Source: Escherichia phage F2. From it: DNA of 64,000 bases. The stretch is from sequence record NC_054913.1. One strand, 5' to 3'. Below are positions 62,824 through 63,563 of the stretch, one piece after another; position 1 is the first letter of the stretch; the number at the start of each line of letters is the position of its first letter. The translations under genes and the position numbers were made by a program. The notes under the pieces are model-generated. The model was given only the letters and a program-made list of their open reading frames with translations, ran no database searches and was not told where the DNA came from.

Positions 62824-62868
62824 TAATTTAAACGAAGTAAATTAAGTGCTCTATCCAAATAATAAATA

Positions 62869-62887
62869 CTCCTATATTTTATAGGAG
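62869..62887 (+). promoter_or_regulatory. RBS-sequestering hairpin upstream of the endonuclease gene
   Basis: CTCCTATA-TTT-TATAGGAG perfect 8-bp stem containing the Shine-Dalgarno GGAG; AATAAATA late-promoter-like box at 62861-62868. Confidence 0.5.
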
Positions 62888-62897
62888 ATAATTGGTA

Positions 62898-63563
62898 ATG
62901 AGCATTTGTAAACATTGTAATATGGAATTTGATATTTCTAATAAACCTAAAGGATGGATGGCTAACCACACTAGATGGTGTAAATCCAACCCTAAATTGG
63001 AATTGTATAAAGAAAGTTCTAAATCAGCCATTGCAGCAATGAATAAAGCACGTATAGCTTCAGGTAATTTAAACCAGTATGTTGTATCTAAAAAGACTGG
63101 TGTCCCTGTAGTAATTTCGGAAGAGACTAGACAAAAATTGTCAGCCGCTTCATTAGGTAGAGAACACTCTGAGGAATCTAGAATAAAAATATCTAATGCT
63201 CGGAAAAAATGGTTGAATGAAAACCCTGATAAACATCCTTGGAAGAAAAATACAAAATTTAAATCTGTGCCTTGTGAATTTTTGAAATCTAAATTAATAG
63301 AAAACGGAATTTCATTTATTGAAGAATACCAACCGGTTAAAAACCGAGCGTATTGCACGGATATTGCTTTAATAGATAAAAAGATTATTATTGAAGTTAA
63401 TGGAAACCAACATTACTCCAATCCTAAGAAAAAGATTTTGGCCCCTTATTATAAAGAACGCCATGATATTATAAAATCATTAGGATGGGAAATATATGAA
63501 CTTCATTATGCTGAAGTTTATAAAGAAGATATTGTAAATAATTTAATTGCCTCTATAGTGTAA
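62898..63563 (+). CDS. homing-endonuclease-like protein (N-terminal Zn finger, NUMOD-like motif, C-terminal PD-(D/E)xK / Vsr-like nuclease)
   Basis: CKHC...HTRWC; ETRQKLSAASLGREHSEESRIKISNARKK; C-terminal DIALIDKKIIIEVNGNQHY...ERHDIIKSLGWEIYEL resembles DUF559/Vsr-type endonucleases; ATG 62898. Confidence 0.6.
   Translation: MSICKHCNMEFDISNKPKGWMANHTRWCKSNPKLELYKESSKSAIAAMNKARIASGNLNQYVVSKKTGVPVVISEETRQKLSAASLGREHSEESRIKISNARKKWLNENPDKHPWKKNTKFKSVPCEFLKSKLIENGISFIEEYQPVKNRAYCTDIALIDKKIIIEVNGNQHYSNPKKKILAPYYKERHDIIKSLGWEIYELHYAEVYKEDIVNNLIASIV

Follow-up and report, generated by a model that had tools for sequence, protein, structure and literature searches.

The window analyzed here is a 64,000-nucleotide (nt) stretch of DNA from Escherichia phage F2 (NC_054913.1). 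Within its tRNA gene cluster lies an open reading frame (ORF) of 221 codons that is very probably, at a rough estimate of 80%, a mobile gene of the homing endonuclease type located at the exact 5' edge of tRNA-Arg(UCU), the slot occupied in phage T4 by segB. The ORF, itself unannotated, belongs to a known class, and both its type of regulation and its kind of location are known. What sets it apart is the conserved run of the ORF into tRNA-Arg, a family-wide adjacency to Arg(UCU) genes, a linked and unrelated tRNA-Arg allele, and a tyrosine at the last catalytic position. The window is nearest to Mosigvirus records (AV111, 97.9% identity), and paralogs of the ORF were not found in it.

The encoded protein and its relatives

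Judged by its pattern of conservation, the ORF is a real gene under constraint. Homologs at 50-83% identity are found across several genera, in the Escherichia phages PSD2001 (Gaprivervirus) and DCP548, in Klebsiella and Enterobacter Jiaodaviruses, in Klebsiella phage phi1_146055, in Providencia phage PSTRCR_121 and in Acinetobacter Lazarusviruses. The pairwise ratio of nonsynonymous to synonymous change (dN/dS) among eight homologs lies between 0.06 and 0.26, and synonymous sites are saturated. When 1.84 billion cluster representatives were searched with a profile, 548 relatives passed E <= 1e-30 and 1119 passed E <= 1e-10; where the source gives these relatives a name, it is "very-short-patch-repair endonuclease".

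A preliminary description of the locus, made from the letters alone, had proposed that the protein combines an N-terminal Cys/His finger, a NUMOD-like motif and a C-terminal block resembling PD-(D/E)xK or Vsr-type nucleases. The finger is borne out by the CxxC...HxxxC residues C4, C7, H24 and C28, which are conserved among full-length relatives. The NUMOD-like motif is marginal: Pfam NUMOD3 matches at E 1.5e-3 with 18.9 bits, just under its cut-off of 20.4, and two tandem S-x-E-T/S-R/K-x-K-I/L-S helices are seen in this region. The NUMOD-like region is N-terminal and the predicted nuclease C-terminal. Over residues 151-210, Pfam DUF559 (PF04480) scores 21.4 bits against a cut-off of 20.6, barely over the threshold, and the RAP domain (PF08373) falls slightly short of its gathering threshold. 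In the AlphaFold2 model (mean pLDDT 89.5) the top structural match of the C-terminal domain is I-Bth0305I by two methods, and the best match of the nuclease-domain profile in the PDB is the same enzyme (3r3p), with the family's IEVNG aligned to the identical motif at an E of 0.11 that is not significant alone. PDB searches with the whole protein and with the full-length profile returned nothing meaningful, NCBIfam gave no match, and PADLOC gave only a weak, meaningless one.

The active site of I-Bth0305I consists of E170, D196, a conserved acid at the position of Vsr F62, N208, H213 and D222 (PMC3239194). The equivalents in the window protein are E127, D155, E166, N168 and H172, and among 61 relatives D155, N168, G169 and H172 are invariant, while E127, E143 and E166 are each present in 60. 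The position of D222 (Vsr Asp97) is taken by Tyr185, which is Tyr in 58 of the 61; the register is given by counting 11 residues back from the conserved Gly of G(W/F/Y), where 3r3p and 3hrl have Asp. Since the D222N change inactivates I-Bth0305I (PMC3239194), catalysis in the window protein, if present, must differ in detail. Tyr185 is conserved across hundreds of family representatives, and the subfamily would either use a different chemistry or, less likely given the constraint, not cut at all. The predicted nuclease is best described as the His-using Vsr/EDxHD type: the Vsr half of the original proposal survives, with Tyr in place of the last motif Asp, and the Lys-type PD-(D/E)xK half does not. 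Dassa et al. described free-standing Vsr-like endonuclease genes with N-terminal tandem NUMOD3 motifs and hairpins in the 5' untranslated region (5' UTR), and so the architecture of the protein is already known (PMC2677866).

Insertion site, tRNA alleles and the association with tRNA-Arg(UCU)

The distribution of the ORF is patchy: it is present in about 10 of the 360 records that match the 2-kb region of the window and in about 6 of 174 Jiaodavirus-type records. An empty site is found in Klebsiella phage Merci, where tRNA-Leu is followed directly by type-A tRNA-Arg. Alignment with such insert-lacking phages, suggested in the preliminary description, yields an exact insertion point, as the LilPanda insert lies precisely between the CCAAA of tRNA-Leu and G1 of tRNA-Arg. 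The cassette so defined runs from TTGTGCTCTATCCAAT to ...AAATTAATT, takes in promoter, hairpin and ORF on the way, and supplies no stop codon itself.

Two unrelated tRNA-Arg(UCU) alleles exist in the Tevenvirinae, type A, which is T4-like with G.U pairs in the D-stem, and type B, which has a perfect GCTC/GAGC D-stem (compared between the window gene and positions 2330-2405, 2250-2326, 663-739 and 1285-1361 of loci L002, L003, L012 and L014, respectively). tRNA-Asn likewise occurs as two alleles. Each genome examined has one tRNA-Arg allele, and in Jiaodavirus types A and B lie on opposite sides of tRNA-Leu.

The gene travels with one of these alleles. Full-length type-A tRNA-Arg is found in only 10 records of the phage collection, and all 10 have the ORF. 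The ORF-less Mosigviruses have the order Met-ArgB (MM02) or Met-AsnB-ArgB (PhAPEC2), with tRNA-Asn and tRNA-Arg genes that are unrelated in sequence to those of the window. Similarity between the window and these phages ends at the 3' end of tRNA-Met, which as the limit of the common sequence is the left boundary of the exchanged segment, and restarts at the ACCA of tRNA-Arg. The tRNA-Asn "A" allele, unrelated to the tRNA-Asn of PhAPEC2, lies 5' of the endonuclease gene in window-type Mosigvirus records, and Salmonella phage SEA1 has this allele without the endonuclease gene.

Recombination has left scars at the locus. In DCP548 (PQ671645, 2152-2227) the tRNA-Arg gene is a chimera, type A as far as the variable region and MM02-type (type B) from the T-arm, with the crossover in the conserved GGTT..AATCC region. 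The two strands of its acceptor stem are unable to pair, ARAGORN does not recognize it as a tRNA, and the Rfam match is confined to model positions 6-65; to judge by the sequence, this is a recombination endpoint inside the tRNA-Arg gene that has left the tRNA non-functional. In G2285 (MK327933, ~1315-1345) a deletion of ~1.08 kb, equivalent to window 62886 to ~63968, extends from the 3' arm of the hairpin to a point ~30 nt short of the downstream gene's stop. Lost with it are the endonuclease ORF, tRNA-Arg and the greater part of the phrog_3355 gene; what is left as a footprint is the hairpin's 5' arm, preceded by the promoter box. PTE-Eco05 (PQ306573) has a +1 frameshift caused by an extra A in a run of five (window 63090-63094), and the record annotates two fragments; this represents either a sequencing error or early gene decay.

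Homing endonuclease genes normally reside in or next to their target gene, and for this reason the tRNA-Arg gene or its immediate surroundings would be the most likely target. The association extends beyond close relatives. An IMG/VR scan yielded 55 loci encoding relatives of 31-57% identity, 52 of them with tRNAs within 1.2 kb. Arg(UCU) accounts for 18 of the 41 tRNAs within 120 nt of the ORF, against 6 of the 137 remaining tRNAs at these loci (odds ratio 17, Fisher p 5e-9; 15, p 9e-8, after near-duplicate loci were dropped), and four more of the 41 are other Arg isoacceptors. In PSTRCR_121 and L020 an intact tRNA-Arg(UCU) lies immediately upstream of the ORF, and in L021 (42% identity) the ORF stops on a UAA that belongs to the anticodon loop (CUUCUAA) of a degenerate element resembling tRNA-Arg. 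In the literature that we searched, Vsr-like endonucleases linked to tRNA genes are not described.

Some unusual tRNA-like elements were encountered at these loci. The L021 element (Logan SRR25078827 contig, 2128-2236) is a D-armless tRNA-Arg(UCU)-like structure (Rfam tRNA 35.7 bits, 2144-2218) nested in a perfect 16-bp inverted repeat (GGGACATTTGAAGGGG / CCCCTTCAAATGTCCC), and a similar D-armless Arg(UCU)-like stretch is present at 1359-1453 of L019. Just 5' of the endonuclease gene in the metagenomic locus L018 (1328-1448), ARAGORN overlooks a tRNA that Rfam recognizes at 41 bits; its anticodon loop contains an insertion of 52 nt, and it may be an intron-containing or a disrupted tRNA. The 3' end TTCAAGTCCTGCCTGAACAA is also present upstream of tRNA-Leu in L007, L011 and L012.

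Probable translational control and the overlap with tRNA-Arg

The preliminary description had placed the Shine-Dalgarno sequence inside a perfect 8-bp hairpin that follows a late-promoter-like box, and this arrangement is not only confirmed but recurs in all homologous loci examined. The Shine-Dalgarno AGGAG (62883-62887) is in the 3' arm, 10 nt upstream of the ATG. By itself the 8-bp hairpin has a folding free energy (dG) of -8.8 (z -2.5), and it belongs to a larger structure that also hides the AUG (62824-62920; dG -22.7, z -4.5, with none of 200 shuffles as stable). An outer stem pairs 62843-62851 with 62900-62908, that is, with the G of the AUG and codons 2-3, a middle stem pairs CCAA (62855-62858) with UUGG (62892-62895), and the inner hairpin is at the center. 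The box AATAAATA fits the T4 late consensus at seven of eight positions, and homologs have the exact TATAAATA, eight of eight. When both strands of the whole window were scanned for (T/A)ATAAATA followed by a perfect hairpin containing a Shine-Dalgarno sequence, this site alone was found.

The combination of a TATAAATA late promoter with a hairpin that hides the ribosome-binding site is kept by homologs in five genera, and TATAAATA with a Shine-Dalgarno-sequestering stem is found in 10 diverged loci. In the enterobacterial loci the outer and inner stems are retained in six of six, every one-sided change preserves pairing, and conservation of the 5' UTR is far above that of the synonymous sites of the ORF. 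These six sequences are too similar for a covariation test, with a single pair changed on both sides, and so support for a regulatory fold comes from the distant loci. PSTRCR_121, AB-Navy97, L019, L020, L021 and several IMG/VR loci achieve the same design from different sequences, with TATAAATA within or just before the 5' arm that pairs with the Shine-Dalgarno sequence and the start codon.

T4 late transcripts start a few nt downstream of TATAAATA. A late start in the window would fall within 62869-62876, and therefore such transcripts could not form the hairpin structure. Control of this kind is established for I-TevI and I-TevII as well as I-TevIII, and has been noted for segB and mobE (PMC2988022).

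We propose the following model. During early and middle infection the tRNA cluster would be transcribed as one precursor RNA, in which the three-tier stem-loop would hide both the Shine-Dalgarno sequence and the AUG so that no enzyme is made, and cleavage by RNase P at the 5' end of tRNA-Arg (63548/63549) would strip the last four codons and the stop from the read-through RNA. Late in infection, transcripts would begin just past the (T/A)ATAAATA box, in the 5' arm of the hairpin; unable to form the stem-loop, they would be translated. In a mixed infection the enzyme would cut the DNA of an ORF-less rival in or next to its tRNA-Arg gene, and through recombinational repair the rival would acquire a copy of the gene, of the resistant tRNA-Arg allele linked to it and often of tRNA-Asn as well.

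A more ambitious interpretation, which we regard as a tentative proposal with the odds against it, is that the ORF is the first recognized example of a large uncharacterized Vsr-like homing subfamily (~550 representatives at 50% identity, E <= 1e-30) specialized on phage tRNA-Arg(UCU) genes, with Tyr at the position of the last catalytic Asp. Such an enzyme may cut one tRNA-Arg allele while carrying a resistant, unrelated one, and it would thereby drive the replacement of whole tRNA alleles between phage genera. Within the window's clade, removal of the stop codon by RNase P would mean that a given transcript could yield either the enzyme or mature tRNA-Arg but not both, and the D-arm-like motif at the left end of the cassette may double as a target-mimicking operator.

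Read in reverse complement, the cassette's left end (window 62846-62859) resembles a tRNA D-arm (TTGGATAGAGCA). The D-arm is that of the displaced type-B tRNA-Arg, to which the motif GTGCTCTATCCAAT is complementary in reverse; the match is a 12-mer in most loci. In DCP548 (1442-1470) the match extends over 26 nt and includes the TTCTAA of the anticodon loop, which the PSD2001 match likewise reaches. Shuffling gives p values of ~0.01 for the window, LilPanda and phi1_146055, 0.0005 for DCP548 and 0.1 for PSD2001, loci that are not independent of one another. As the motif doubles as the regulatory stem's 5' strand, regulation alone could explain its conservation. It is a weak lead toward a remnant or toward an operator that mimics the target, as for I-TevI, and may be chance.

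Turning to the ORF's 3' end, ARAGORN and Rfam agree with the original observation that the stop codon falls inside tRNA-Arg, whose start is fixed by a perfect 7-bp acceptor stem. The shared 15 nt are tRNA nucleotides 1-15, comprising the 5' strand of the acceptor stem, nucleotides 8-9, the D-stem and the start of the D-loop, and the TAA occupies nucleotides 13-15. PSD2001 (Gaprivervirus) and LilPanda (Jiaodavirus) have the identical 15-nt overlap in the same frame with the same D-loop TAA, even though the proteins of these three genera are only 61-65% identical. In phi1_146055 a different D-arm shifts the stop 9 nt onward, giving an overlap of 24 nt. The tRNA-Arg of L018 (63% identity) is cut down to an 18-nt 5' stub and 10 nt of the 3' end, and the ORF still ends in the stub. 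Elsewhere in the family, members overlap other downstream tRNAs on the same strand, Arg(ACG) by 10 nt (L051, ~2097-2106) and Leu(UAG) by 18 nt (L063, ~1882-1899).

Two other functions for the protein have to be weighed. It could be a decayed or domesticated homing endonuclease relic that binds DNA, for example as a regulator, without cutting it, and that spreads only through ordinary recombination of its flanks. Tyr185, which replaces the very Asp whose change to Asn abolishes I-Bth0305I activity, the frameshift in the close relative PTE-Eco05 and the loss of the gene from G2285 would suit such a relic. We nevertheless consider this improbable: the entire nuclease core is strongly constrained (60-61 of 61 relatives) at the low dN/dS noted above, the persistence of Tyr185 through the family suggests a functional subtype rather than decay, and the patchy distribution, exact insertion, linked tRNA allele and scar in tRNA-Arg fit active homing. 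Still harder to credit, to the point where we give it very little weight, is an RNA nuclease or RNA-binding factor that acts on the tRNA precursor in the manner of the eukaryotic RAP/FASTK proteins. Structurally, the protein comes closest to a DNA homing endonuclease, a zinc finger and NUMOD3-type helices are what phage homing enzymes use to bind DNA (PMC2677866), the signs of co-conversion arose at the level of DNA, and a processing factor would not be missing from ~97% of close relatives that have the same tRNA cluster. The homing endonuclease interpretation has its own difficulties. The NUMOD3 score is below its cut-off, the profile match to I-Bth0305I is not significant alone, a catalytic Asp is replaced by Tyr185, the window's own promoter box departs from the consensus, and the statistics of D-arm mimicry at the left end are modest (p ~0.01 per locus). 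Partial tRNA-Arg copies in spacers, which would have placed the insertion point within the tRNA, were considered as a general feature of relatives with an upstream tRNA-Arg but were not significant in 12 of 13 loci and were rejected. An empty site with the same tRNA-Arg allele is absent among Mosigviruses, and the route into the genus therefore rests on flanking homology. Nuclease activity and target site, together with transcript start points and the role of RNase P, are what we infer.

The overlap itself is a separate question, and here the balance is much closer: there is not quite an even chance that the 15 shared nt are a packing accident between tightly spaced tRNAs, with no regulatory meaning. 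Family members that stop 1-13 nt before a tRNA, or that run into others by 10-18 nt, are what tight packing would produce, as is the T4 segB stop 5 nt ahead of tRNA-Arg, and in L018 the overlap persists without a working tRNA. Set against this are the retention of overlap, frame and D-loop TAA across three genera at the protein divergence given above and the consequences of tRNA processing. Cleavage by RNase P at the tRNA 5' end is an established step, and at this locus it would necessarily take the stop codon away. Brok-Volchanskaya et al. put forward a milder form of such control for segB, with tRNA-Arg maturation disabling the mRNA by a cut that separates its last codon from the stop codon (PMC2330249).

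Known systems, annotation and locus layout

The window protein and I-Bth0305I have in common the C-terminal Vsr-like fold, predicted for the former, and the IEVNG motif, whose Glu and Asn align with E206 and N208; the Asp, the His and the upstream Glu are conserved as well, and the marginal NUMOD-like helices of the window protein precede its nuclease domain, in line with the domain order of the family. Free-standing members of the EDxHD family, which includes phage Hef, have already been reported with 5'-UTR hairpins (PMC2677866, PMC3239194). The differences are the conserved Tyr in place of the fifth motif residue Asp222, the NUMOD-like motifs of type 3 (as in two of the proteins of Dassa et al.) accompanied by a CCHC finger, and the location, which is between tRNA genes rather than in an intron, intein or protein-coding gene. 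No Hef annotation was found in the first 50 kb of phage Acj9.

The resemblance to T4 SegB is one of position. SegB occupies the same slot directly 5' of type-A tRNA-Arg(UCU), is of equal length (221 amino acids, aa), also has a hairpin-hidden ribosome site, and confers preferential inheritance on the neighboring tRNA genes (PMC2330249). However, it is a GIY-YIG enzyme of an unrelated nuclease family, as the preliminary description rightly held: BLASTP detects no similarity between the two proteins (E 2.1) and the window protein has no GIY-YIG Pfam match. The window ORF enters the tRNA, whereas segB stops short of it, and its late-promoter box abuts the hairpin, whereas none has been mapped near segB. 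The Mosigvirus VIPECOMC06 (PQ416618, 2285-2953) encodes a SegB ortholog, 76% identical to that of T4, in the same slot after tRNA-Met, in a genome without tRNA-Asn and tRNA-Arg. Its gene has CATAAATA and a hairpin that sequesters the Shine-Dalgarno sequence and AUG (dG -21.4, z -7.7), the same design as that of the window gene. Two unrelated nuclease families, GIY-YIG SegB and the Vsr-like enzyme, thus compete for one slot, as mobE and hef do at nrdA/nrdB (PMC2988022).

For I-TevI, I-TevII, I-TevIII and Aeh1 MobE, the late promoter is so positioned that late transcripts start without a hairpin's 5' arm; read-through RNAs from the early and middle periods contain the whole hairpin, which sequesters their ribosome site (PMC2988022). 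We liken the control of the window gene, whose transcript starts are predicted from sequence, to that of the I-Tev genes. The 3' ends of the I-Tev ORFs also enter a structured RNA, which is a group I intron core rather than a tRNA. Homing-type nucleases within phage tRNA clusters are known from T5 (F-TflI, F-TflII and F-TflIV) and from mycobacteriophages (cited in PMC2330249, PMC6409571), and these are thought to reshuffle tRNA repertoires, as would the window gene; they belong to the HNH family, and no report ties them specifically to tRNA-Arg(UCU).

Among six records, OR352941 (AV111), PP658200 (HY126), OK254198 (PSD2001), MW239157 (17-11), PP889504 and PQ885451, the ORF is uncalled in four and labeled "HNH endonuclease" in two. 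It is a "hypothetical protein" in the other enterobacterial and Acinetobacter records examined, and "homing endonuclease" appears only on distant relatives from Rhizobium phages and one Leptolyngbya phage. Correct naming would explain polymorphism in the length and sequence of the tRNA region in phages of the genera Mosigvirus, Gaprivervirus and Jiaodavirus, among which are many candidates for therapy. The finding also brings to light an entire Vsr-like subfamily associated with tRNA-Arg(UCU) genes. The enzyme would add a new class of target and an altered active site to a homing family with a single characterized structure. Phage tRNAs counter tRNA-cleaving host defenses. SegB was recently shown to amplify such phage tRNA loci (PMC13096335), and a second mobile nuclease that shuffles tRNAs is therefore a testable driver of the evolution of tRNA repertoires.

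The features of the locus are collected in Table 1; from 62671 to 63624 the order on the + strand is tRNA-Met(CAU), tRNA-Asn(GUU), the ORF and tRNA-Arg(UCU).

Table 1 Features of the endonuclease locus, in window coordinates
Feature	Position	Strand	Basis or content
tRNA-Met(CAU)	62671-62745	+	ARAGORN; Rfam 62.4 bits; alignment
tRNA-Asn(GUU), "A" allele	62752-62823	+	ARAGORN; Rfam 53.6 bits
Cassette left end, including GTGCTCTATCCAAA (62846-62859)	62843-62859	+	Fold, consensus fold, conservation
Late-promoter-like box AATAAATA	62861-62868	+	Match to T4 late-promoter consensus
Hairpin CTCCTATA-TTT-TATAGGAG, perfect 8 bp, 3-nt loop	62869-62887	+	
Endonuclease-type ORF, 221 aa and stop	62898-63563	+	ATG 62898, TAA 63561-63563
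CCHC zinc finger, aa 1-30	62898-62987	+	
NUMOD3-like helices, aa 73-104	63114-63209	+	
Predicted Vsr-like nuclease domain, aa 108-221	63219-63560	+	
Key residues of the ORF		+	E127, E143, D155 (63360-62), E166 (63393-95), N168 (63399-401), H172 (63411-13), Y185 (63450-52)
Segment shared by ORF and tRNA-Arg, 15 nt	63549-63563	+	Codons 218-221 (A S I V) and TAA
tRNA-Arg(UCU), type A (T4-like) allele	63549-63624	+	ARAGORN; Rfam 56.3 bits

The feature had originally been drawn from 62861, which is the start of the promoter-like box and not of the gene. The frame is open from a TTG at 62892, and the credible start is the ATG at 62898, because the homologs begin with MS(I/V)CKHC.

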